From assembly GCA_963737155.1 (NCBI GenBank), contig CAVTRN010000001.1, positions 416,001 through 480,000 of the forward strand: 64,000 nt of DNA, in the 5' to 3' direction. A program made the position numbers and the translations under genes. This document shows, piece after piece, positions 13,900 through 62,836 of this stretch; position 1 is the stretch's first letter; every line of letters begins with the position of its first letter. Source of the DNA: Nitrospirota bacterium. Lineage in GTDB: Bacteria; Nitrospirota; UBA9217. The notes under the pieces are model-generated. The model did no database searches. It was not told where the DNA came from and saw nothing but the letters and a program-made list of their open reading frames with translations.

Positions 13900-15422
13900 G
13901 ACGAGGTCAAGCTTTTAGTTGAAATTATCTGAGTGGCCCGTTCCCTTCGGCTAAAGTATTTTTATCGGTTCAACGGTGTAAATCATCGCTGTTTATAAAA
14001 TCGGATTCGTAGGATCGCCATATGTGAGTTTTCTGAGGCCGAGCCATACCTAACCATCCCCCTTTACGCAGCCTCTTTGACTGTTAGGTCATTTAATTCT
14101 TCCGCTTCGATCCGTTTCATCACGTCCGCGATGAAGGCGTGGCCCTTGATCTTTCTGAATCCTTGTTCAGCATATAAGAGGACAGAAGCGAGCCAGCGCT
14201 GCATCATCTTGCTGTCGCGGTAGCGCTTTATATTGCCTTCTGCTTTTCTCACCGTGGAAAACATGCTCTCGATAGGATTGGTAGAATGCAACGTCTTCCT
14301 CAAGAGAGCGGGGACCTTCAATCGATGAAGGGTGAGAATGTCTTCTATCGCTTCCATGAGCGAATCAGCCGCCGACTCATTAATGCCCCGAAGCCATTTC
14401 TCCATGTCCAGAAGCATCTGACGAGCGTCCGCGTAATTATTCTGCTCCAGGGCTGTCCGGAACCTCCAGTGTGCGCCTTTCCGGTATTTCTTCGGCAAAT
14501 GATGCTGTATATTCCGGTCCTTGTGGATCGTGCACCGCTGATGGATGAGTTTCTTACCGAAGCGATCCCGGAGTGCCTTGATTACGCCCTTGCCGCCATC
14601 GGTAACCCAGATGATTCGTCGTGAAAGTATCAGACCTCGCCGCTCTATATCAGAAAACAGCTCTTCACACAGTTCATGGTTCTCCGTCGCCCCCTGCCAG
14701 AACCCCAATGTCTGCTTCTTTCCGGCAATATCAAGCCCCAGCGCCACGATGAATGCCTCTCCGCCGCGGTGAACAGTGTCTAAAAAGACCGCAAAGGGAA
14801 CGAATGACGTGAGTGACCGTTCCTTAAACTCCTGAAGCTGTTTTGCTGTTGCCGCGACGATATGGCTCGATACCGTGCTGGCGGACACTCCAAATGCTCG
14901 TGCCGTATCTACAACTGTCTCCGCATACTTCCGGCATGATATGCCCCGAAGCACCTTTCCAAGCAATTCTTCTGCGAAGACTTCCGGTTTTTTCATCTTC
15001 TGATAGCTCTGCAGTACAATCTCACCCGCCGGACCTCGAAGCCGAGGGTGGGTCACCGGGATCTTCTGATCTCCGATATAGACGGAACCGCCCTGGCTAG
15101 CCCACTTCCGCAGATCGGGACTGTTAGGCTGGTAGTCGGGGCCGGCAATCTCCTCCCGCTCGATGTACATGATCGTCTCTGCCATCATTCTGCCCATTTC
15201 CTTCATGCATTCATCAAAACCCTGTTTCCCTTTTGCGAAGACACAATACATCTGTTCGATGATCTCCCGCCTTCCGTATGCCTCTTCAATTCCTCGTATT
15301 GCCTTTTTTCTCTTCCTTGTGGTATCCTTCATTGAGTGGCTCCTTTCTTTTTTCTCTCTCTACCGTGGATTATGCCACGGGGGAGCCACTCTTTTCAATT
15401 TCAACTAAAAACAGTATAACCT
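13900..15422 (-). mobile_element. IS256-family insertion sequence
   Basis: Flanked by direct repeat GAGTCTGTTC (13890-13899, 15423-15432); subterminal inverted TTTTAGTTGAAATT. Confidence 0.9.
14064..15332 (-). CDS. IS256-family transposase
   Basis: VFLD, VTDGGKG, QRCTIHK, STNPIES. Confidence 0.95.
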   Translation of the reverse strand: MKDTTRKRKKAIRGIEEAYGRREIIEQMYCVFAKGKQGFDECMKEMGRMMAETIMYIEREEIAGPDYQPNSPDLRKWASQGGSVYIGDQKIPVTHPRLRGPAGEIVLQSYQKMKKPEVFAEELLGKVLRGISCRKYAETVVDTARAFGVSASTVSSHIVAATAKQLQEFKERSLTSFVPFAVFLDTVHRGGEAFIVALGLDIAGKKQTLGFWQGATENHELCEELFSDIERRGLILSRRIIWVTDGGKGVIKALRDRFGKKLIHQRCTIHKDRNIQHHLPKKYRKGAHWRFRTALEQNNYADARQMLLDMEKWLRGINESAADSLMEAIEDILTLHRLKVPALLRKTLHSTNPIESMFSTVRKAEGNIKRYRDSKMMQRWLASVLLYAEQGFRKIKGHAFIADVMKRIEAEELNDLTVKEAA

Positions 15423-15521: not shown

Positions 15522-16562
15522 TTACTGGATATCTGTGGTATGAATCAACTTATCCTCATAAATCTCAACTCTATTTCTCCCTAATTTTTTCGCACTCGTT
15601 TTAGCTTGATTTGCATATTTTTCAATTTCTCTTTCAGTATAAACACATTCCTTGTGAACATAATATAAACCAATTGACACAGTTAGAGGAATTGTGATAC
15701 CTGGAACATTCATTTGTGATAATTTTAGCTGAAATTCCTCTAAATAATCTTTTGAAAGTTTAAGTGACATGTTCGGAATAATCATCATATATTCGTCACC
15801 GCCAAAACGATAAGCGTAGCCGTGTGAATAAATGTGGCTTTCAAGCTCTCGCATGAATCTCGGAAGCAAAACTCGGTCAACAGTCGGCTCCCCATATTTA
15901 GTGTTAAAACTTTTGAAGTTGTCAATGTCTAAGTAAGCCACAGAAAGACCCACATTGCGAGAGTTGCACTTTTGACGGTAGTAATTTAAGTCGGAATAAA
16001 AAAGACGAGGAGAAATTAGTATGTGAAATTTTTCATCGTATTCTCTGCTTTCCAACTTCCACTTAAGGTCGTCCTCGATTTTTTCTATATATTCAGTTGA
16101 TATGTAGGCTGAGAGAGGAGGCAATTCTGTTGGTTTTGTGGAAATAAACCATTCTTCTTTAGTAAACTATTCGATAGCCTGCAGTCGTTTTTCTAATTGT
16201 TCTATAATATTTAAATCGGAAGTTTTCCCAAGCGGTTCTACCAGTTGATTTGCCATATCTTGTCGCTTATGAAGAATAGCCCTACAAAGCAGAGCTAATA
16301 AGTCATCATCAAGAGAAATGCTTGTTTTTGCCATGCTTCTTGTCCCTTTAATCCGCATTCTGGTCCCTATGTTAGTGTTAGTAAATATTCCAATTAACTG
16401 CTGTAGATTTGTGTCGATTTGAGATAATTCTTGTGGAATAACACCACTAAATTCCTTCGTTAAAACGTTTATCAGTGTCTTTAGGACGTGATTTTTTAGT
16501 TCCTCAACGTACTGTCTTAAATTGTGTGCATCATCTAAGAGTAATTTGAAACTGGTAGTCAA
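15522..16562 (-). pseudogene. GGDEF-domain protein interrupted by one in-frame TAG
   Basis: 16167-16562 and 15522-16124 are in frame with only TAG 16167-16169 between them; DIDNFK...YRFGGDEY. Confidence 0.8.
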
Positions 16563-21433: not shown

Positions 21434-21991
21434 TCAGTTCATAACCAAGTAACTTAATGCCGTCTGCCTCTTCCGATTAACCACCTGCTTTACCGCCATT
21501 GAGAGTACCTTCCTGCTGCCGGCTTGGGACTTGCTGAAGCACAATTTTTTTAAGATTCCATAAACTTTTGAATATATGCCAGAAGCACCAGATTCCCGTT
21601 GACCAGCAACATTAAGAACTTGGGGCTTGATTATATTTAGCCATTCAGTTATTTCCTCCACAGCGTCTTCAACGGATACTTTTTTAAGATTAATATGGAG
21701 ATATGGTTTCCCGTACTCCTTTGCAAAATCAATAGTCTTTTTTGTCCCGCCAGTTAATGTACCATACGTGAATGCAAGTGTAGCATCTGCATCTACTACG
21801 TTCTTTCTTGTACGAGCAATATACTCCCCCTCCTCCAATTCTGTCAGGTGAGGATACTTTTCTGAATCAATAGGACCATCTTCGGCAAGTCTGCCCTTTG
21901 GGATAGAACCGCCGTAATCCATCCCCAGCTCAATCGCTACATCCAAGGCTGCTCTGTCTGCACCAGTCTGTCCACCCGAAATGATTTTCAC
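21434..21991 (-). CDS. SLOG-family 'putative molybdenum carrier' (circularly permuted YpsA-like) protein
   Basis: KIISGGQTGADRAALD, RT..NV..DAT, GGT..T, LNVAG.RES. Confidence 0.88.
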   Translation of the reverse strand: MKIISGGQTGADRAALDVAIELGMDYGGSIPKGRLAEDGPIDSEKYPHLTELEEGEYIARTRKNVVDADATLAFTYGTLTGGTKKTIDFAKEYGKPYLHINLKKVSVEDAVEEITEWLNIIKPQVLNVAGQRESGASGIYSKVYGILKKLCFSKSQAGSRKVLSMAVKQVVNRKRQTALSYLVMN

Positions 21992-22620
21992 TGTTGAACT
22001 TTCTCATATTTATAATAAAGATGTTGAAAAAGTTTTGCCTGCCAATATGTAGCAAGTAATGAAATAACAGAAAAAGCAAAAAATAAAACTTTATATACAG
22101 ACCATAAACCCACTATTAATTTGAGTCCAGTCATCATGACATGGAGATAAAATAGGATTAGAAAAGCTCCTGATAGTTTCTTAAAATAAGGCATCTCCTC
22201 ATTCTTTATTGTCCTAAAAACATAGAACAGCAAAAACGTAGTTGCCATCGGCACCACTTTATATTTATCATATAATCCATCGAATGTATAAGGCATGTTC
22301 AACAAAATAAATCCCGCGATTCCCATTAGCATATTTATCGAAATAATGGCATGCAATCTATCATTGCCAATGATGCGAGAATATTTTATATAGCCCAGGG
22401 AAAGATAGAGCGATACAATCAATGCAATAAATCCTCCAATTCCATTTCCAACGATTTGCAAAACCAGATTGTTCAATATGTCAATTTTAAATACATAGAC
22501 TGCTATGCTAAATGAAATCCCCAAGGCAATGCTGGCAAAATAAAGAACGTAGCAATACTGAAACTTAACAAACCTTGCCACTTGATAGGTTCTTTGCTTT
22601 AAAGAATCAAGTACGTTCAT
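21988..22620 (-). CDS. Multi-TM hypothetical membrane protein
   Basis: About six hydrophobic segments; overlaps the SLOG gene start. Confidence 0.7.
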   Translation of the reverse strand: MNVLDSLKQRTYQVARFVKFQYCYVLYFASIALGISFSIAVYVFKIDILNNLVLQIVGNGIGGFIALIVSLYLSLGYIKYSRIIGNDRLHAIISINMLMGIAGFILLNMPYTFDGLYDKYKVVPMATTFLLFYVFRTIKNEEMPYFKKLSGAFLILFYLHVMMTGLKLIVGLWSVYKVLFFAFSVISLLATYWQAKLFQHLYYKYEKVQQ

Positions 22621-22686
22621 GGTTTTCCTCGTTGGTAATCAGGTAACCTAGTGCTTAAAATCGAATATGCCACCAGTGTCTCTGGC

Positions 22687-23013
22687 TTAATGCATAATTT
22701 CACCAGTAGACCTCATATCCCAGATTGTCCCCTGCCAGTTGTTGATTATCCCTCGGTCTCCACACTTGAGACACTCCCAATAGATTTCATCTGTATCCGG
22801 ATGTACATAACCAGTGATTTCCCCTAAACACGGCTTCCTCTTTGGTTTCCGTCTGCAATATACTTGATGCTCTGGAGGATATTCTATCTCAGAAGCCATG
22901 ACAATGATTGCCGCGAAGTATTCTGCGAGCTTCGCCGCTGCAATCGGCCCAGTTATCATCTCTCCCTTTTCATCCAGAAAATGGGTGATATCAGTAATCC
23001 AGGTGTCTGCCAT
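22687..23013 (-). CDS. Small Zn-binding hypothetical protein
   Basis: CRRKPKRKPC...WECLKCGDRG; start placed at ATG 23013. Confidence 0.7.
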   Translation of the reverse strand: MADTWITDITHFLDEKGEMITGPIAAAKLAEYFAAIIVMASEIEYPPEHQVYCRRKPKRKPCLGEITGYVHPDTDEIYWECLKCGDRGIINNWQGTIWDMRSTGEIMH

Positions 23014-23697
23014 TATTGTTTTCCCTTTTGGATGCGGGTCAGTATTCTTATTGACATCTTTGGCTACCAGATTATACCGCAGAACCACCTTATCATGGAA
23101 GCAGGATTCCTTATTATATGGTCATGATGGTAGAGGAACGGGGACGGAATTATTGCGCGGGAAGGTTCATGCCAAGAACTGACCCATAAGAAGGAGAAAA
23201 AGCTCAGGGTGGTCAATTTTCGGTTATCAAAGCCAGATATTGTAGTAGCAACCGGTAGCTGCGGTTGGTTCCTATAATGAAGAGATTGTATAGTAGAGGT
23301 CTATTATGTGGAAGATGGCTTGCTGTGAGTTTACCCGGATAATACAAAAGCACACCAAACTGCGGTGTGCTCTCTACTCTACTACCCTCTGCCACTGCTC
23401 ACCCGTGAACGCCTCCCGCTACCGTTCAATCGATGAATCTTTCATTCTCGGCAGAAGAGTTTCAGCCATACTGCAGCCTATTGGCTGCTTGTCTGCCCTG
23501 AGTGTGTTCTGGAACTGTGCCAGTCTTTAGCTTCGGGGCGTTTCTTATGTGGGCTGATTCGCGGGTGCTTATTCATTCCGAATAATCAGGCGGCGTATCT
23601 GACATTAAGTTCACCCCCGTCCTGTGCTACATTGCTTCTGTTTCTCATAGTATAGCACTGAATGGGATATATGGGGCGGGGGGTCAAAATTTGACGC

Positions 23698-24037
23698 TGA
23701 TTCCGGTTCAGTTGTTCAAATTAGGGTCGGAGAGGTCAGTCAGGGGACAGTGGTCTGCAAACGGCTTTGGGGTCACCGGGGCAGAATGCAGAACCCCGAT
23801 TTGGGCATTCCGGGTATCCCCCAAGGCGGTTGTGCCGCCGGGTGTCCGGGAAACCCCCGGTGACCATTCAAAAGCCCTATAAAACGGTATTGGGGGCATG
23901 GGCGGGGGCGGGATTTGGGTCGGTGATGACGCCGAATCGGAATCACCGGGGAATGCCACTCACCGGCTCAAATCCTGGCATGGATTCCGAGACAATCCAA
24001 ACAACTGCCGCACCCTTTCCGTAGAACAGTTCTACGG
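23698..24037. other. GC-rich nested inverted-repeat (highly foldable) non-coding block
   Basis: 23698-23709 pairs with 23934-23945; 23771-23781 pairs with 23855-23865; palindrome at 24019-24037. Confidence 0.6.
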
Positions 24038-24097
24038 GCATCTGAGGCTATTCAGGCTAGCTGTTTGAGGTGGTTCTGCTGATGTATTACAATCCCA

Positions 24098-24137
24098 GAA
24101 AAACTTAAACCCCGGCAGAAGTAATCTACCGAGGTTT
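24098..24137 (-). terminator. Intrinsic terminator
   Basis: AAACCTCGGTAGA-ttact-TCTGCCGGGGTTT (13 bp, two U.G pairs possible only on minus strand) followed by AAGTTTTT. Confidence 0.7.
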
Positions 24138-24946
24138 TACATGGTCATAATTTGATATGGTCTTAACGTTATTGTTATGGGTTAACAGTATTCATTCTCA
24201 AGCTATTAACTTCACTCAACCTTATTAAATCTTCTGTTGAGCTACTTCTTTTGTTATCGTGAACATCTTGTTTAGAGGTATTCATAACTTCGTAAGAGCA
24301 GGTTCTCTTACTATACACCCACCATCCTATCAGTATCTCAAAGCCTTTTGAAGTATGCTTCAAGTTACCTGCCCGATAGGGTAGGTAATACTTCGGAGAA
24401 TGAGAAAAGCGAGGAGCTTTTAGGGTTCTGGTTGTTTCAGTAGTTCTAGTTGTAGAAGCTCTTCTGCTTGTTCTTGATTCTGTTCTTGTCCTTGTATTTG
24501 AATTTGTCTTAACTTGGTTATCAGCTTAACTTGTACTTGTTATATTAGTTATTATTGTTTTAGTAGTTGTTGTTTGTCTTATACGGGAATTAGTATGATT
24601 TTAAATTTTAATAGTCTTAACGTTATCAGTTTTGTTGTTTCTTTTTGTTGGGGGATTTACTTTTTGCTTCCGCGCTTGAGCAGTCCTACGATTATGACTT
24701 GCATTTTTATATCAGCTTAACTTAAATTCTTTTTCTTCAATGGGCTTAACTTGTTTTTGGGCATAACTTTTAGTCGTTCATCTTTAGGTGGGCTTAACTT
24801 CGTGCGTTCAGTTACTTTACTGGTATCCGCACTACTCTTCTTGTCATAATCATTACCGTCCCGGCTACATAGAAACCTGTAGATGGGCAAACCACTGTAC
24901 GTGTCCGTGGACACTACACGCCATAGGTGATGCTACTGCTATTCAA

Positions 24947-24960
24947 TTGTCAAAGAACTC
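24947..24960 (-). promoter_or_regulatory. boxA-like Nus antitermination element
   Basis: GAGTTCTTTGACAA versus consensus GYTCTTTAANA, ~25 nt after the predicted TSS. Confidence 0.65.
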
Positions 24961-24984
24961 GGTGCTGCTCAACTTCTTAATTAT

Positions 24985-25019
24985 GGCTGCATTTTACCAG
25001 AATTTTAAAAGGCAGTCAA
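24985..25019 (-). promoter_or_regulatory. Strong sigma70 promoter
   Basis: TTGACT-17-TAAAAT with extended TG and GC-rich discriminator GCAGCC. Confidence 0.8.
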
Positions 25020-25099
25020 ATTGGGACCGCCGAAATCGAAAAAAAGTTGAGTCAAAATCAAAAATAACGCGCCTACGGGGGTTTCACGGAAAAATATTT

Positions 25100-25279
25100 T
25101 TATTTCCCGGCCGCTCTCATGCCACCGGGGAGCATCTCCCTGATTCCTGGCGTTGGATTGTCAATGACCTCGGAGAGCCGCATACGGATAACAGATGATA
25201 GACTCAGCCTCAACCTCTGTGCTTCCTGAGATAAGTAAAGGAAATCGGCGGCGGTCAATCTTACGGTTACTGTTTTCAT
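25100..25279 (-). CDS. Ribbon-helix-helix (CopG/Arc-like) protein
   Basis: MKTVTVRL...LSQEA...SLSSVIR; GAGGAG RBS. Confidence 0.7.
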   Translation of the reverse strand: MKTVTVRLTAADFLYLSQEAQRLRLSLSSVIRMRLSEVIDNPTPGIREMLPGGMRAAGK

Positions 25280-25451
25280 CTTCGGGCTCCTCATGTAAAA
25301 ACATCACTTGCTTATAAATACTACTGAGGCGGAACGGTTTGGGAAGAATATTTCCGCCCTCATAATATATACTCACGAGGATAAACCATAATAAACAAAT
25401 ATCTCCTGCGGTCAAAAAAGGGCTATTGTAAACCGTTAATGGTCAGGTTAA

Positions 25452-26822
25452 TTAGAAATCATTGATACCTTTCCCGGTTAAACGTTTTATTTTTCTCCAA
25501 AAACTTGTGTATTGACTTTTTGGCAAACCTTCCTCTAAAAGCACTGACTTTATGTCTTTTCCACTTCTTTTAATTTGTTCTATTCTTGACTCTAATAAAA
25601 TGACTAACATTTTTTGACCATATGAGAAAATGTCCTTTAATTTCTCTTTTTCAATAGTTCCTGCAAACATAGAGAGTGATTGCAGGAAAGCATTGGTCGA
25701 ACTCTGGAATGAATCAGAAGTCACTGTCCATAAATCATCGGTTAAAATTTCGGTTCTGCCTGCAATTTTTGCTTTGATGATGGCTCTAATGAGTATTGAT
25801 TCAAGTTCTCTATAGTTCCCTGTATACTTCAATTGCAGAAGGTGAGAAATCGCACCCTCTGATAGGCTTATATTTTCAGAAGACTTTAACTTTTTGCGCG
25901 CCTGCTTGACTGAATTTTTTAATACCATGTCAGGAAGAACTTTTAACCTATCATTTAAGTTCGGTAAATAAATAGGATAGTAAAATCTATATCGCAAATC
26001 GGGAAGCATTTCATCTTTTTCAATGTGTGTCGGCTGAACAGCCGTAATAAATCGAATGTCAATATCCTCTGGTTCTGATTTTCCCAGCTGTTTGAACTTT
26101 TTCTCTTCAATGACTTTCAGCATTTTAGCTTGAACGTGCAGAGACGCTTTACCAATTTCATCTAAGAAGAGAGTGCCGCCATTAGCTCCTCGCAGCATGG
26201 GAACTAATTCTTCTTTATTATGGAAGCCAGGATAATTCGGTATTACTCCGAATAATTCAGCTTCTAATAAATCTTCCGGCATCGCGGCACAATTAATAGA
26301 AAACCAAGGTTTACTTCTGCGATTGCTCATACTATGCAGAGCGCGCGCCAATAGTCCCTTACTTGTCCCCGTTTCCCCAAATATGATAATTGATATGTCT
26401 TCTTTAGCTACCTCATAAAATTCCCGCAGATAATGCTTATCAACAGCACCTACTTTAAGGTCATATCTATCAGATATGTCCATCATAACAATGTCTGGGA
26501 TTTGTTCCAACATCATCGCCACGGCAGGAATTAAAAAATTAAATCGTACATCCTTCTCAAAATCCTTATAAAAAATATTCTCGAACATTACTCGAGCTTC
26601 CTCCAAGTCATCCTGTTCGATGGCACTATTGAGATAATATAATGCGTTTGCTATGTAGGATTTCCTTTCTCCCAAGGAAGCAATTATATTTGTTCGCAAT
26701 TCTTCAGATTTGCCGCTAATCACCTTCAGGTCTTTGGGAATAACTCTCTTTATTAGCTCGTATGCAGTTTCCTGGGACATTATTTCCTCCAATAGCCTTA
26801 ATTGATTATCATAAATAACCAT
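25452..26822 (-). CDS. Sigma54-activator-like AAA+ regulator with non-canonical motifs
   Basis: GETGTSK, INCAA, EAELFG, GGTLFLDEIG, GNYREL; GAFTGA replaced by VIPNYPGFH. Confidence 0.88.
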   Translation of the reverse strand: MVIYDNQLRLLEEIMSQETAYELIKRVIPKDLKVISGKSEELRTNIIASLGERKSYIANALYYLNSAIEQDDLEEARVMFENIFYKDFEKDVRFNFLIPAVAMMLEQIPDIVMMDISDRYDLKVGAVDKHYLREFYEVAKEDISIIIFGETGTSKGLLARALHSMSNRRSKPWFSINCAAMPEDLLEAELFGVIPNYPGFHNKEELVPMLRGANGGTLFLDEIGKASLHVQAKMLKVIEEKKFKQLGKSEPEDIDIRFITAVQPTHIEKDEMLPDLRYRFYYPIYLPNLNDRLKVLPDMVLKNSVKQARKKLKSSENISLSEGAISHLLQLKYTGNYRELESILIRAIIKAKIAGRTEILTDDLWTVTSDSFQSSTNAFLQSLSMFAGTIEKEKLKDIFSYGQKMLVILLESRIEQIKRSGKDIKSVLLEEGLPKSQYTSFWRKIKRLTGKGINDF

Positions 26823-26852: not shown

Positions 26853-26910
26853 AATATAAACTATAAGTTGTTGTTTATATTACTTTATTTACTTTGGCAT
26901 TCAGTATGCA
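26853..26910 (+). promoter_or_regulatory. Sigma54 -24/-12 promoter with adjacent 9-bp inverted repeat
   Basis: TGGCATTCAGTATGCA (GG-N10-GC, 26895-26910); AATATAAAC-N11-GTTTATATT (26853-26881). Confidence 0.6.
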
Positions 26911-26955: not shown

Positions 26956-27267
26956 ATGAAACTTTTGCGTACTGGTATGGCAATTTCATTTCGATTACCC
27001 GCATATAGTAACAAGCATAAGTTCCGCCCTCTTTCAACGGGGCTTATCCTTGCCGATTACTACACAGTGAACGGCGGCACTCATATTTTCAAAATCCAAA
27101 CAGAGAAAGGCATTATCCATATGAATGGTGCGTCACTTTACCCTGACGCTCAGGTTCTTAAATCAAAGATAGGATTTACGATACGTGACCTCATTGGTGT
27201 CAACAACTCGAACAAAATTTCGAACAAAATAATATCACTGTGCAAGCAAGATAAACCCCCACCATAG
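26956..27267 (+). CDS. Hypothetical protein
   Basis: First ORF after the sigma54 motif, AAGGGA RBS. Confidence 0.55.
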   Translation: MKLLRTGMAISFRLPAYSNKHKFRPLSTGLILADYYTVNGGTHIFKIQTEKGIIHMNGASLYPDAQVLKSKIGFTIRDLIGVNNSNKISNKIISLCKQDKPPP

Positions 27268-27310
27268 TAGCCAAATATGCAAAACCAAAGGTGGTTCAAC
27301 ACAACATAGC

Positions 27311-27871
27311 ATGACGCGCACCCAAAACTCAGAAAGGATTATCCAAATGAGTACCCATATCAAAGTATTGTTTACTGACAGGTATAAAGCACCTGTATTC
27401 ACAACCATAGCTGCTTCTGAAATCGCGTTCCAATATGTTCGTGAGGGTAAATTAGAAATTACTCTACTTAAAGAACATATTATCGAGGTGCTTTGCAATC
27501 CCCAAGATAAGGTGAATGCACCGTTATCTATCGCAATTGCCAAGTTCATTCCTGATAATTTGGCAATTATCAACCATTCTTTTGAGAATACTAGAATTCC
27601 TGAGTTTTATATAACGCCTCTTGCGGTGCTTGGTAAATATTTTATTGTCGCTCTCCGTGAGCCTCTAAACGACAACACTTGGGAACGCATTGATTATGCG
27701 AGAAACGTTTTTCGAGGATTGAATCACGCTGAGGAATCAATTTTAAATTCCTTGCTGAAAGTTTTTTACAAGGAACGTTTAGTGTGGGTAAACGCTCTTT
27801 TCAGGCAATTAACGAGCGTAGGCAATGCCTGTGGCATAGAAATTAAGCGTGTTTCCAATAATCCAGAGTAG
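27311..27871 (+). CDS. Hypothetical protein
   Basis: 186-aa ORF; likely start near 27347 after AAAGGA. Confidence 0.6.
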   Translation: MTRTQNSERIIQMSTHIKVLFTDRYKAPVFTTIAASEIAFQYVREGKLEITLLKEHIIEVLCNPQDKVNAPLSIAIAKFIPDNLAIINHSFENTRIPEFYITPLAVLGKYFIVALREPLNDNTWERIDYARNVFRGLNHAEESILNSLLKVFYKERLVWVNALFRQLTSVGNACGIEIKRVSNNPE

Positions 27872-27941
27872 CTAATTTCACACATATTTAAGTAGAGGCT
27901 CAATGCCCCTGCCCTATCTTAACAATAGAAAGGATATAACA

Positions 27942-28145
27942 ATGATTAAAATTAAGCGGAAACGTGTCGGCGAGTCCGACAAGTATGATTCAGGTTCAAA
28001 ACCATTCTCTGTGCATTTTTCAGACGGCACCATTATGAGCTTGGTTGAAGAGAAAGATTTAGCAAGCTTCACCAAAGAACAAGAGAGCAAAGGTTGTACT
28101 GTCATTAATTTATTCGACCTCGTGAATAAACAAAGGTGGCATTAA
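27942..28145 (+). CDS. Small hypothetical protein
   Basis: AAAGGA RBS before ATG 27942. Confidence 0.55.
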   Translation: MIKIKRKRVGESDKYDSGSKPFSVHFSDGTIMSLVEEKDLASFTKEQESKGCTVINLFDLVNKQRWH

Positions 28146-28161
28146 GAAAGAGGGTGATAAA

Positions 28162-28190
28162 GAGAGCCGGTCACAGGCTGACCGGCTCTC
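28162..28190. terminator. Strong intergenic hairpin
   Basis: GAGAGCCGGTCA-caggc-TGACCGGCTCTC. Confidence 0.55.
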
Positions 28191-28281
28191 AGAAAACAAT
28201 GACAATCCCGTCAATCGCGTAATCGGTGAAAGCTGAGGAACAAATCTATTAACCATTGTTTATCTAAATGAGGTGATATCT

Positions 28282-28713
28282 ATGTACGAGAACGAGATTC
28301 ATTTAAGCAAGCGTGAGTTAAGGAAACGTTTCGAGAAAGAAATCCAAGAGAACGGGCAACAGTATCTCGAAACCATTCTTACGCAAGTTGAGGAAATCAT
28401 TGACGAGATTCAACACGTTCTCATCAGTGACATTACTCTCGAAAATTACCATGACGATTTTCTTATGCATGCCGCTTTCAAACTTGAGTGCTATATCGAG
28501 AACCTCGAATCGTCAGAATCCGAACAGGATATCGATATAGTTTCTGACCTTGAAAACATAGTTGCTTATCTCAAGAAACTCGCTGACGCATATGTTGATA
28601 TGTATAACGCTGTTGACGACCTTGAGAACGATAACATTGCGGGATTGATTCAAACTCTCAAGAAAAGTGGCAATGCTTATCTCGAAAGAAAGGAGGTAAA
28701 TTCTTATGAATAA
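28282..28713 (+). CDS. Highly acidic helical hypothetical protein
   Basis: GAGGTG RBS; roughly 33 D/E versus 13 K/R by hand count. Confidence 0.7.
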   Translation: MYENEIHLSKRELRKRFEKEIQENGQQYLETILTQVEEIIDEIQHVLISDITLENYHDDFLMHAAFKLECYIENLESSESEQDIDIVSDLENIVAYLKKLADAYVDMYNAVDDLENDNIAGLIQTLKKSGNAYLERKEVNSYE

Positions 28714-28857
28714 GAGAATCGCTGTAAAAAAGGCTGGGCTACAGATAGTGACGATATGTTGAAAGCGGAATTAATAGCTTTAGCAAAGTCAGGCGCACCG
28801 CGACCCAAAGATAATTCACGCTTGGGCAAAGCACTATTGAGATTTACAACAAAATAA
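28706..28857 (+). CDS. Small single-repeat paralogue of 28920-29381 requiring a -1 shift at A_AAA_AAG
   Basis: AAGGAGG RBS; -1 frame reads KAELIALAKSGAPRPKDNSRLGKALLRFTTK. Confidence 0.55.
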
Positions 28858-28864
28858 TCTTACT

Positions 28865-28897
28865 CCCCCGCCATTAGGCGGGGGGATTCTTTAATTC
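28865..28897 (+). terminator. Hairpin terminator, copy 1
   Basis: CCCCCGCC-atta-GGCGGGGG-gattctttaattc, repeated at 29389. Confidence 0.75.
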
Positions 28898-28919
28898 TTA
28901 TAAAAAGGAGAATACGGTA

Positions 28920-29381
28920 ATGAAAAAGCATCCGACTCGGAAGGAATTGGTAAAACTCTTAGGCGACAGTTTCGATGCAAGCACCTTCAGGTGTGAGGAA
29001 TTTGTGTTAAATACGAAAGGCAATTGGGAGTATCAGTTTAATGAAAAAGCCCTGATGAGGGAGTTGAAGGCTTTGCATGATTCGGGAGCACCGAAACCTA
29101 AGCCAAATACCCGTTTGGGTAATGCATTAGCAACACTTATGGGAAGCGGGAAGAGAAAGCACATGACAAAGCAGGAATTATCAAGACTCATTTTGTACGG
29201 CTTTGACGCAAGTACATTTAGGCGTGAGGATTTTGTTTTAGATACAAAGGGTAACTGGGAATATAAGCCTGATGAAAAAGCTCAAAAACGAGAGCTGCTT
29301 GCCTTGGCAAAGTCAGGCGCACCGAGACCCAAGCCGAATACTCGATTGGGCATTGCATTCGCAAGATTTACCACAAAATAG
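28920..29381 (+). CDS. Hypothetical protein with two ~77-aa internal repeats
   Basis: FDASTFR.E.FVL.TKGNWEY...SGAP.PKPNTRLG occurs twice. Confidence 0.85.
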   Translation: MKKHPTRKELVKLLGDSFDASTFRCEEFVLNTKGNWEYQFNEKALMRELKALHDSGAPKPKPNTRLGNALATLMGSGKRKHMTKQELSRLILYGFDASTFRREDFVLDTKGNWEYKPDEKAQKRELLALAKSGAPRPKPNTRLGIAFARFTTK

Positions 29382-29388
29382 TTTTAAT

Positions 29389-29421
29389 CCCCCGCCATTA
29401 GGCGGGGGGATTCTTTAATTC
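29389..29421 (+). terminator. Hairpin terminator, copy 2
   Basis: Same sequence as 28865-28897. Confidence 0.75.
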
Positions 29422-29441
29422 CTAAAGGAAAGGATAATACA

Positions 29442-29825
29442 ATGACAGTGAAAACAGTCGTGGCTCAGGAAAACCAGATAGTAGAAAGGAAGGAAATCAT
29501 GAAACGGGTAAAAAGTTTGATGGAACTGACAGGACAAGAATCAGGTGTCGTCATTTATAACGGCGAAGAGCGGAACACCTTAATCTGCAACTGGTCTCAT
29601 GTGGAGGGGCTGCCTAAAGTATTTGGGCCTTGGGAGTGGATAATGGGTATGGGGGAGGATATCCCCGCAGTAAAAGGGGAATACATATCAGCCGAGGATG
29701 TGGCTGATATGCTCGACAACATTAACCTAATCTATGACGCCAACAATGATATACAGAATGTTCGTGCGGGAATACTGTACCGCTTGCCCCACGCCATAGT
29801 GATTGCCCCTGAAGGTTGGAACTGA
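29442..29825 (+). CDS. Hypothetical protein
   Basis: ORF with AAAGGA RBS. Confidence 0.65.
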   Translation: MTVKTVVAQENQIVERKEIMKRVKSLMELTGQESGVVIYNGEERNTLICNWSHVEGLPKVFGPWEWIMGMGEDIPAVKGEYISAEDVADMLDNINLIYDANNDIQNVRAGILYRLPHAIVIAPEGWN

Positions 29826-31110: not shown

Positions 31111-31447
31111 CATCATGATTGGGTAGCAGTCAATATCTGTTGACAGGGCGTGAGCTGCAATGCCACGCCAAGTCAAAGTTCAAAATACAATTTGCCTATC
31201 TCAAGATGGGCAGTAGAATGGGGGCTGAGTCATATGCAATCTCAAGACAACAAGCTGAAATATTGCGGATGTGAATAAAAAGAATTTAAGTGAACCACTA
31301 TCTCCAATATCTACACAGAACGAGTTAGCTGCAAAAGGGCATCGGCAAACCGAATCTGCCACAAATCCCGTTCATCCCACCAACCATAAAATAACCCTTG
31401 TTTCCGGGCAAAAGGTCCTTTATACTCCCGGTCCCCAAGGGCTATGT

Positions 31448-32646
31448 ATGAACGGAAAAGTCAAAACACGTGAAAAGTGTGCGCAGTGCGGTGGTAAGTT
31501 TCAAACCATCGAAGGTGTGGATATTCTATGTCCAAGCTGTAACACCCGTCCAAAAACTTTTTTTATATTCCTATATTGGCAAGGTGCAAAAGCTCGTATA
31601 TCCCGTGACCGTGATGGCCACATGCTTGATAGTTACAAAAGGGCGCAAAGGCTCCTTGAACGTATCCGCTATGAGATAGACGCAAAAACCTTCCATGTTC
31701 AAGATTATCTGCCAAAGGAAATCGACCAAAATCGTGGAAACGTTCTTTTCCCCAAGTGGTTAAACATCCTAAAGAGCAAAGGCAATGCTTTGTCCTACAC
31801 ACGAAAGATTGAACAGTACATCAATGACCATTTCATCCCCCATTTCGGGAAAATGATTGTTACTGATATCATAACAAGCCACATTGAGGATTTCAGACTG
31901 TATCTGAGTATGGAATATAGAATTCAGCGGACAGGGGGAAGCTTGCTCCGGCTACCATTAAGAAAGTAATGGATGCCCTCAAGGAATATTTCCATTGGCT
32001 GAAGAACAGAGAGACTATCATGCGTATCCCGTACTTTGCCCCTGTTGATGTTCCAGAACCTGTCATCGAAGTTATGGACCTCGATGACAGGGAAAAGGTA
32101 TTGAAGGCAGTCACATCACCGTATCTGAAGAATATTCTCAGTTTTATGAAATTTCACCCTGTTCGTCCGTCAGAAGCATGTGCACTTGACGTTAGCCACT
32201 TCGATTTAAAGGCAAGGATTGTTTACATAGAACGCTCATTGGACTCTGACTTCTCCTTGAAGCCTCGTAAAAGTAAACGGGCATACGAGATTCCATTATC
32301 ACCGGAGTGGGATGCCTCTTGTTTGAAAAGTAGGTTTGGGAAGGAAATTGCCTTTCCAAACAAATATGGCAAACGCTACAACAACAATACAACCAATGGG
32401 GCGTGGAAAGCTGCCTGTAAAAGGGCCGGAGTGCCCTATTTAAGCCTCTATCCGTCCATGAGGCATACCACGGCTACAAGTTACGCCGACAGGAACATTC
32501 CAGAGGAACAAATCGAGGATATGCTTGGGCAAGAAACACGGGGAATGTCGAGGAAGTATGTTCAGAAATCAGTGGAAAGGTTGCGCTATATCGTGGGCGA
32601 TGGTGCACAAGTGGTGCACATCAATGAGAGAAAAAATTCTAAATAG
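31448..32646 (+). pseudogene. int: Tyrosine integrase with N-terminal Zn ribbon, frameshifted at a G5 run
   Basis: CAQC..CPSC; VRPSEA, PRK, YPSMRH, LGQ, RKY; one extra G at 31934-31938 gives RTGGKLAPATIKKVMDAL. Confidence 0.88.
32601..32620 (+). repeat. Tandem TGGTGCACA, probable integrase arm-type sites
   Basis: Two copies 11 bp apart, ~50 bp from the tRNA 3' end. Confidence 0.55.
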
Positions 32647-32666: not shown

Positions 32667-32751
32667 TGGTGCCGAAGGGGGGACTCGAACCCCCATGGGT
32701 TGCCCCACACGCCCCTCAAACGTGCGTGTCTACCAATTCCACCACTTCGGC
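32667..32751 (-). tRNA. tRNA-Leu (GAG)
   Basis: GCCGAAG...TTGAGGG anticodon loop, long variable arm, GGTTCGAGTCC, ends ACCA. Confidence 0.97.
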
Positions 32752-55945: not shown

Positions 55946-56037
55946 TCTCTGCTCAGAGCAAACCTGGGAAAACCCAGGGACGCAAAGCAACGGGACTAAT
56001 GAGTCAATCGACTCGATGTCCGCCGAGCCGCCAGAGA
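55946..56037 (+). ncRNA. GEMM-I cyclic-dinucleotide riboswitch, A20 (cGAMP-type) variant, copy 1
   Basis: P1 TCTCTG/CAGAGA, GCAAACC..GG-GACGCAAAGC, GGGACTAA receptor, GCC 3' end; A at 55957. Confidence 0.9.
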
Positions 56038-62744: not shown

Positions 62745-62836
62745 TCTCTGCTCAGAGCAAACCTGGGAAAACCCAGGGACGCAGAGCAACGGGACTAATG
62801 AGTCACTTGACTCGATGTCCGCCGAGCCGCCAGAGA
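62745..62836 (+). ncRNA. GEMM-I riboswitch, A20 (cGAMP-type) variant, copy 2
   Basis: Near-identical to 55946-56037; A at 62756. Confidence 0.9.

Follow-up and report, generated by a model that had tools for sequence, protein, structure and literature searches.

A candidate untranslated RNA headed by boxA and carrying an oriented GTTAAG array: an orphan locus in a genomic island of a Nitrospirota bacterium

The window analysed here, a 64,000-nt stretch of DNA from a Nitrospirota bacterium (genome G000), includes a genomic island of lowered GC content whose minus strand carries a compact unit made up of a sigma-70-type promoter, a boxA element, some 880 nt of DNA that hold an array of GTTAAG hexamers and no credible open reading frame (ORF), and an intrinsic terminator (Table 1). 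Two minus-strand genes stand upstream of this unit, one for an AAA+ protein and then one for a ribbon-helix-helix (RHH) protein. Promoter, boxA and terminator are intact, lie in the correct order and share one strand. Judged from its sequence, the unit is a candidate untranslated RNA, an orphan that is headed by a boxA and carries a motif array in a single orientation.

Table 1. Features of the boxA-led unit and its surroundings (positions are those of the window)
Feature	Coordinates	Strand	Remarks
Window	G000:C1:416001-480000		
Promoter, sigma-70 type, TTGACT-17-TAAAAT	25019..24991	(-)	TG extended -10; 10/12 matches
boxA, GTTCTTTGACAA	24958..24947	(-)	~27 nt after predicted start
boxA with 3' extension, TTGAATAGC	24938..24958	(-)	21-mer
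GTTAAG array	24162..24802	(-)	7 exact copies (plus-strand CTTAAC at 24162, 24508, 24525, 24616, 24716, 24745, 24793) and 4 variants (GTTATG x2, at 24283 and 24762; GTTAAT; GTTAAC), one orientation
A-rich core	24435..24835	(-)	41-54% A, 6-20% G, C mostly at least equal to G; predicted mostly unpaired
Only locally stable stretch	24281..24480		Imperfect palindrome TTACCTNCCC-N4-GGGNAGGTAA (24365-24388); sliding-window folding
Intrinsic terminator	24137..24107	(-)	13-bp stem (6 G-C, two U.G), 5-nt loop, tail AAGTTTTTCT
Separate promoter-uORF module	23331..23676	(-)	Extended -10 (TGCTATACT), Shine-Dalgarno (SD) sequence, 10-codon upstream ORF (uORF; 23605-23573, MSDTPPDYSE), terminator (23370-23341)
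RHH protein gene, 59 aa	25100-25279	(-)	ATG at 25279, GAGGAG before it
AAA+ protein gene, sigma-54-activator type, 456 aa	25452-26822	(-)	Like bacterial enhancer-binding proteins
IS256-type transposase, inserted	14064-15332		

The signals that frame the unit had been proposed in a first-pass annotation of this DNA, and they were recovered here. The promoter is present on the minus strand with its extended -10 and GC-rich discriminator (GCAGCC), which place the predicted start near 24984, and it is one of two sites with 10 of 12 matches among 13 promoter-like sites in 22500-25600 (shuffled sequences gave 6.2 +/- 2.6). The proposed body without a credible ORF likewise stood for about 880 nt: no minus-strand ORF between 24100 and 24990 exceeds 65 aa, the longest being 24717-24914 (GTG start) and 24175-24363 (TTG start). 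A decayed gene was rejected as an explanation of this stretch, given that its two longest stop-to-stop frames (116 and 71 aa) had no tblastn match against plasmids and that the GTTAAG motif, on reading the sequence, does not keep a constant frame. The 13-bp minus-strand terminator that had been placed at the end of the unit is there, on the unit's strand and closing the ORF-free stretch, and a scan of 3.1 kb showed no other terminator-like site. Terminators are not enriched in these 3.1 kb (1 versus 3.3 +/- 1.8 in shuffles), and the presence of one is statistically unremarkable.

The boxA-like site that had been noted about 25 nt after the start proved to be a 12-mer identical at 12 of 12 positions to the boxA in the 16S-23S spacer of the host's own rrn, at C1:1123070. 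The genome has one 16S gene, in whose spacer the boxA stands after a hairpin and before CTGAATAAGCA; the bases that follow the island boxA, TTGAATAGCA, are similar, and the 16S leader reads as holding a boxA variant, GGTCTTTGAAAAC. Against the boxA consensus GYTCTTTAANA, which is stated to be possibly different in other groups (PMC5725501), the island copy scores 10 of 11, departing from it at position 8, where G replaces A; this consensus was published for gamma-proteobacteria, and the host's own rrn has that G. The host encodes NusB, Rho and Hfq, and the sequence ahead of the island boxA reads as free of any boxB-like hairpin. In the whole genome the 12-mer occurs seven times, compared with none for the reversed control and about 0.6 expected by calculation. 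Two of the seven copies read as paralogous leaders of insertion sequence (IS)-like transposase genes and others lie in probable coding sequence; the rrn copy is therefore the clean comparison.

The 21-mer formed by boxA and its 3' extension recurs exactly in five viral contigs, three of which read as having promoter-like -35/-10 sites upstream of it. An ORF begins 45-170 nt downstream in four of the five, and in the fifth (L237) the 21-mer lies inside a tRNA array. Two phage contigs, L237 (6265-7919) and L307 (1-796), the latter with a 19-mer variant, have an rrn-type boxA within a tRNA gene array or at its start, a placement that fits Nus-dependent protection of the tRNA transcripts from Rho. 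The looser 19-mer matches at least 120 viral contigs, and its context was analysed for 96 occurrences (loci L235-L330), 91 of them not cut by a contig end. In these 91 the ORF-free run after the 19-mer has a median of 27 nt and reaches at least 500 nt in 13, nine of which represent one prophage family. In L278, the one member of that nine-contig family that was read, TTGACA inside the 19-mer reads as a -35, 18 nt from TATGAT. No suitably spaced -10 hexamer was read after the internal TTGACA of the island copy, and the promoter scan lists no promoter there; the boxA reading holds for the island copy as far as its sequence goes.

Downstream of boxA, the seven exact GTTAAG copies (between 24162 and 24798) and the two GTTATG variants lie exactly where the first-pass annotation had listed them. 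Alignment of the 11 sites extends the motif to AAGTTAAG[C/A], or in full to AAGTTAAG[C/A]YNA. Copies are spaced irregularly, from 17 to about 225 nt (17, 29, 31, 48, 91, 100 nt and more); the first lies about 186 nt inside the predicted transcript, and none falls in the RHH promoter or the RNA promoter. Not one of 5000 first-order Markov sequences reaches seven copies, GTTAAG occurs on the minus strand only 17 times in the whole window, and the cluster is unique in the 4.8-Mb genome, in which the next-best same-strand cluster within 700 nt has three copies. Longer, diverged duplications around the cores form repeat families D1-D4, which are 65-80% identical and within which three GTTAAG subtypes recur as exact 12-14-mers. 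Such exact cores within drifted flanks suggest selection on the core. Tandem Repeats Finder (TRF) reported no regular tandem array of the motif, only a low-score 15-nt repeat of 2.9 copies.

Outside the unit, the only other place in the genome with two close copies of AAGTTAAG is a small intergenic cluster, AAGTTAAGTTATAAGTTAAGTCG...GGTTAAG, at C2:38841-38869. A search of 401 same-phylum genomes for AAGTTAAGC-N10-40-AAGTTAAGC matched two, G000 and an unrelated repeat in G330. A three-copy AAGTTAAG scan of viral contigs gave 118 loci, whose top-ranked arrays are mostly regular tandem repeats, many with periods divisible by three. In one contig, L063 (1050-1330), a terminase small-subunit gene is directly preceded by seven forward and four reverse copies of AAGTTAAG within some 270 nt, likely a packaging-recognition array. 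L063 belongs to a phage family of six GC-rich contigs with one AAGTTAAG spacing pattern (with L031, L039, L068, L072 and L112) and is the only member that was read. Integron attC sites have the core consensus GTTRRRY, which GTTAAGC fits; they were rejected as the identity of the island copies, which lack inverse cores and stand much too close together. A link between the UUA of the motif and tRNA-Leu(UAA) was also rejected, the adjacent tRNA being Leu(GAG).

The body between the signals is compositionally distinctive. An extreme strand bias, with A in excess of T and C of G, is confined to the stretch between promoter/boxA and terminator, the predicted unpaired probability of the A-rich core is 0.52-0.71, and AAnAAnAA occurs 11 times over the whole RNA, compared with 3.8 +/- 2.3 in shuffles, 12 of 1000 of which reach 11. 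The structured body claimed in the first-pass annotation did not hold up, as folding z-scores show no excess and an open conformation is predicted for the A-rich core. For the 885-nt RNA z is -1.31, with 2 of 20 shuffles folding no worse, and for its plus-strand complement -0.72; the 315 nt at the 5' end give +0.17 and the 301 nt at the 3' end -1.60. The two long-range helices cited for that structure are of a size expected by chance, with about 1.5 pairings like the 9-bp helix (24843-24851 with 24690-24698) and about 6 like the 8-bp helix (24396-24403 with 24192-24199) calculated for 885 nt. The palindromic hairpin was correctly said to pair better on the plus strand, where it forms a G.U pair in place of the A.C mismatch of the minus strand, and the locally stable stretch around it is more stable on the plus strand for this reason. 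The statement that the RNA could not be assigned to a known class also stands: Rfam covariance models gave no gathering-score match in the region, and at E up to 10 only MIR5020 (E 1.5) and His_leader (E 6.2). Apart from boxA look-alikes, no complementarity to the RNA longer than 17 nt exists elsewhere in the genome, and an antisense target there was rejected on the strength of this result, the single 17-nt match having E 0.21.

Relatives of the unit were sought at several levels. Its DNA is single-copy in its own genome; a DNA homologue search of 61 relative genomes matched only G000 itself, and plasmids and phages searched in distant mode held no DNA homologue. A same-class search with a 2.7-kb query matched 6 of 64 genomes, including G000, none of them inside 24100-25100 except G064, whose match there is a 50-nt low-complexity one (E 8.5e-4). 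Metagenome contigs yielded no relative of the RHH protein, for which a word-index search gave only the protein itself among the candidates scored. Alignment of the AAA+ subfamily gave 11 genome loci and 80 metagenome loci, and the DNA downstream of the AAA+ gene differs from locus to locus; nine loci that are full-length or nearly so (L002-L005, L010, L155, L156, L158 and L159), three of which end within about 200 nt of the gene, have no RHH gene, boxA or A-rich array downstream. The array was not found in the upstream regions of three paralogues of a downstream 108-aa gene, and neighbour-protein searches gave no syntenic loci.

These features can be joined into a tentative model in which the locus encodes a Rho-protected untranslated transcript acting as a multi-site decoy, a reading that we regard as possible though short of probable. 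A self-contained, island-borne unit would make an untranslated minus-strand RNA of about 880 nt, running roughly from 24984 to 24105. The strong sigma-70 promoter would fire, the rrn-type boxA at about +27 would recruit NusB/NusE and other Nus factors, RNA polymerase would then resist Rho across an untranslated, A/C-rich, G-poor and largely unpaired body on which Rho would otherwise load readily, and most transcripts would end at the intrinsic terminator. RNA of this kind, rich in A and C, poor in G, without pairing or translation, matches the textbook picture of what Rho acts on, and phage tRNA arrays, CRISPR arrays and rRNA are long untranslated transcripts. Once released, the RNA would act in trans as a decoy that offers seven exact and four variant AAGUUAAG sites in one orientation to a putative sequence-specific binder. 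The distal face of Hfq could likewise be filled by AAN-repeat tracts of the RNA, on the model of CsrB/RsmZ and CrcZ. On rRNA, boxA/Nus complexes block Rho (PMC4807359; PMC6614801). We favour a decoy because the cores are kept while their flanks drift, the copies share the orientation of the transcript and the AAN tracts are enriched. A more ambitious version appears unlikely to us, namely that the RNA is an abundant, boxA-shielded decoy of about 0.9 kb and of an undescribed kind, an unstructured A/C-rich, G-poor scaffold whose 7-11 oriented AAGUUAAG sites would soak up a host or phage RNA-binding factor and so tune island silencing or defence; candidates for that factor are a sequence-specific protein, Hfq via the AAN tracts and even Rho via the rut-like body.

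Several observations weigh against the decoy model, which in any case joins sequence signals and their statistics to a transcription, Nus loading, RNA ends and, above all, decoy function that we infer from them. The enrichment of the boxA 12-mer is weaker than the raw count of seven suggests, and the motif is ambiguous by itself, not every match being a boxA, because in the prophage contig L278 its TTGACA reads as a -35. Ten of the 11 motif copies are predicted to be less unpaired than their surroundings of +/-30 nt, so that no preference for exposure is seen, and 24361-24480 is more stable on the plus strand (z -5.13, versus -3.86 on the minus strand). No candidate binder for the motif emerged. 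No homologue was found anywhere searched, so that the model has no conservation or covariation support. Finally, the tyrosine integrase beside the tRNA-Leu gene is split in two ORFs (31271-31969 and 31969-32646), and the island looks decayed.

A different account places the function of the array in the DNA, with the GTTAAG copies as sites of 8-12 bp for an element-encoded protein, for example the RHH or AAA+ protein, and with transcription either incidental or regulatory; we consider it improbable. Under it the copies could be operators or roadblocks in an array, mark an origin or a locus resembling a centromere, or signal packaging. The RHH gene lies directly upstream, and one RHH dimer is enough to recognise an asymmetric motif of 6 bp at irregularly spaced sites, as PutA does with GTTGCA, while the 'stoperator' sites of mycobacteriophage L5 likewise keep one orientation. 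The palindrome and its plus-strand-biased stability fit a DNA-level or bidirectional feature, and in phage L063 the motif serves as a DNA array, in both orientations ahead of the terminase small subunit, although it was a search for the motif that turned this array up, which makes it a precedent rather than a homologue. In the island, however, all 11 copies point along transcription, their spacing is irregular and not helically phased, unlike that of iterons or centromere arrays, and none lies in the RHH or RNA promoter, the RHH upstream region having a different inverted repeat. No Rep, ParA, relaxase or terminase was found nearby with Pfam, PHROGs and NCBIfam, and the promoter, boxA and terminator that frame the array would be left unexplained. 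An iteron origin or centromere in the strict sense, with regularly phased repeats of 17-22 bp, or contiguous short boxes, by rep or par genes, was rejected: the core is 8-12 nt, the spacing is irregular, and the family scans found no Rep, ParA or relaxase. About as doubtful is the idea that promoter and boxA form a nut-like antitermination leader for the roughly 23 kb of co-oriented island genes, in which case the 880 nt would be leader and not product, and RNA polymerase would be carried across AT-rich foreign DNA that is sensitive to Rho and, in part, past terminators. Between 23088 and 171 the minus strand does hold nearly all ORFs, phage ORFs follow the exact 21-mer closely in four of five contigs, and the SuhB-containing rrn antitermination complex suppresses both kinds of termination, Rho-dependent and intrinsic, in vitro (PMC6614801). 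Against this, the first credible downstream ORF (ATG at 23013) is about 1.9 kb from boxA and has its own TATAAT promoter near 23070; two intrinsic terminators intervene, with a separate conserved promoter-uORF module between them; the phage 19-mer is followed by an ORF-free run with a median of 27 nt, not 880; and a leader would leave the oriented motif array unexplained.

The locus might also be a relic, that is, a phage-like early promoter and boxA stranded in a decaying island, with an A-rich stretch that is non-functional and locally duplicated and a terminator that is fortuitous. We give this little credence, in spite of the split integrase and the inserted IS256-type transposase, the status of the locus as a singleton in every collection searched, and a neighbouring GC-rich block of about 0.9 kb that looks like an insertion. 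The growth of the array by duplication of segments, seen in families D1-D4, and the lack of enrichment of terminator-like sites in the region also speak for a relic. It would account less well for seven hexamer cores that stayed exact while their flanks diverged, which suggests selection on the core, for a promoter, boxA and terminator that are intact, ordered and on one strand, or for an A over T and C over G bias confined to the stretch between these signals.

Like the boxA-protected RNAs (rRNA, CRISPR arrays and phage tRNA arrays), the unit has a boxA soon after the predicted promoter with a long putative untranslated RNA to follow; its 12-mer is the host rrn spacer boxA, its 21-mer recurs in the L237 tRNA array and a 19-mer variant stands ahead of that of L307. 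It differs in a body without rRNA, tRNA or CRISPR repeats. Earlier work has reportedly described boxA upstream of CRISPR arrays. The unit also shares with lambdoid nut sites and phage early leaders the exact 21-mer common to five phage contigs, with promoter-like sites upstream in three, but the phage ORF starts within 45-170 nt, in contrast to none here for 1.9 kb, and no boxB-like hairpin precedes the island boxA. With CsrB/RsmZ, which carry GGA sites, and with CrcZ it has in common a (here putative) untranslated RNA with many copies of a short motif and variable linkers, and A-rich AAnAAnAA tracts are a further likeness to CrcZ, a 407-nt RNA with six A-rich Hfq sites (PMC4063720). Unlike in CsrB/RsmZ, the motif is AAGUUAAG rather than GGA and does not lie in predicted hairpin loops; unlike CrcZ, the RNA would be about twice as long, at 880 nt, and its promoter is of the sigma-70 and not the CbrB-dependent sigma-54 type. 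No TGG-N9-TGC site was found upstream of the RNA, and a sigma-54 promoter for it was rejected: the only good site in this part of the island lies at 26895-26909 (+), in the divergent intergenic region, and the AAA+ protein has no GAFTGA.

Type III toxin-antitoxin (TA) loci of the ToxI kind offer another parallel, with a promoter, a repeated RNA and a terminator in that order within a defence-rich island. Here, however, short cores are irregularly spaced where such loci have regular units of about 36 nt, and beyond the terminator comes a further 1 kb or so of non-coding DNA. An antitoxin array of this type was rejected, TRF having found no regular tandem repeats, and PADLOC and Pfam no ToxN/AbiQ-type match among the downstream proteins. 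The first-pass annotation had likened the locus to GOLLD and ROOL, which it resembles as a large non-coding locus in a mobile element; the likeness goes no further, since the body is not detectably structured, has no excess folding energy and an A-rich open core, and gave no Rfam match to them at E up to 10. If the predicted transcript is real, the unit would add a mobile-element non-coding RNA to the short list of boxA/Nus-protected transcripts, which holds rRNA, CRISPR arrays, suhB-type leaders and phage nut sites, and it would offer a clean test bed for how foreign DNA escapes Rho, since 1 kb takes in the promoter, boxA, rut-like body and terminator that are predicted. The AAGUUAAG sites, all in one orientation, would be a lead to a binding specificity, for RNA or DNA, that is not yet described, and the 21-nt boxA module found in five phage contigs may generalise better than the orphan locus itself.

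The island that houses the unit is marked by lowered GC from position 1 of the window to about 32670 (34-52% per kb, mostly 35-45%), and this low-GC stretch abuts a tRNA-Leu(GAG) gene at 32667-32751 (-). Integrase arm sites or an island end were rejected as readings, since the window has no second copy of 12 nt or longer of the 3' end of tRNA-Leu. The island carries defence and mobile-element genes, including a BamHI-type restriction enzyme, two DNA methylases, ArdC and the IS256-type transposase. Further island genes encode a GGDEF/Cas10-palm-like protein of 200 aa (15522-16124, minus strand) and a circularly permuted YpsA-SLOG protein (21434-21991, minus strand), which lie in one co-oriented gene string and could be a nucleotide-signalling defence pair.

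Closer to the unit, the RHH gene that had been annotated beside it is present, and the matches of its product are all sub-threshold (Pfam DUF6290, E 0.0035; NCBIfam BrnA, E 0.023, and RelB, E 0.17); by its sequence the protein is an orphan. An inverted repeat upstream of the gene (25315-25334/25352-25371) is different from the GTTAAG motif. The AAA+ protein reads as lacking the GAFTGA loop, with ELFGVIPNYPGFHNKEE in its place where the subfamily consensus is YPG; its N-terminal domain is its own, and at the C-terminus stands a degenerate Fis-like helix-turn-helix. It sits in its own subfamily at 35-42% identity and has about 60 relatives at 30-42% identity, several of them at contig ends. The divergent intergenic region holds the sigma-54-like element TGGCATTCAGTATGC (TGGCAT-N5-ATGC), which is followed by six small plus-strand ORFs (26956-29825) that have no significant Pfam, PHROGs or NCBIfam match.

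On the other side of the unit, the promoter-uORF module of Table 1 matches a locus in another genus (G031; L142:1501-1878) at 76% identity over 126 aligned columns, and the terminator also matches. The uORF reads MSDTPPDYSE here, its G031 counterpart is MSDTPPERSK, and the codons of the common MSDTPP differ by a synonymous CCG/CCA change; the SD sequence is GGGGGTG/GGAGGTG; in G031 the module stands between a DUF4143 AAA ATPase gene and a Fic-domain gene. A 331-nt stretch of the module folds at z -2.76, and the module could be an attenuator with a leader peptide that stalls ribosomes at Pro-Pro. The GC-rich block (about 50% GC, ~0.9 kb) lies within 23073-24082 and is flanked by the inverted repeat CAGCAGAACCACC / GGTGGTTCTGCGG. 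In the same-genus genome G009 (L144), the matches to its outer edges lie ahead of an unrelated gene with only 26 nt between them, which gives the block the look of an insertion into a promoter-leader cassette that is shared. Outside the island, c-di-GMP-I riboswitches were found at 55947-56035 and 62746-62834 on the plus strand (65.6 and 59.9 bits), upstream of plus-strand ORFs.

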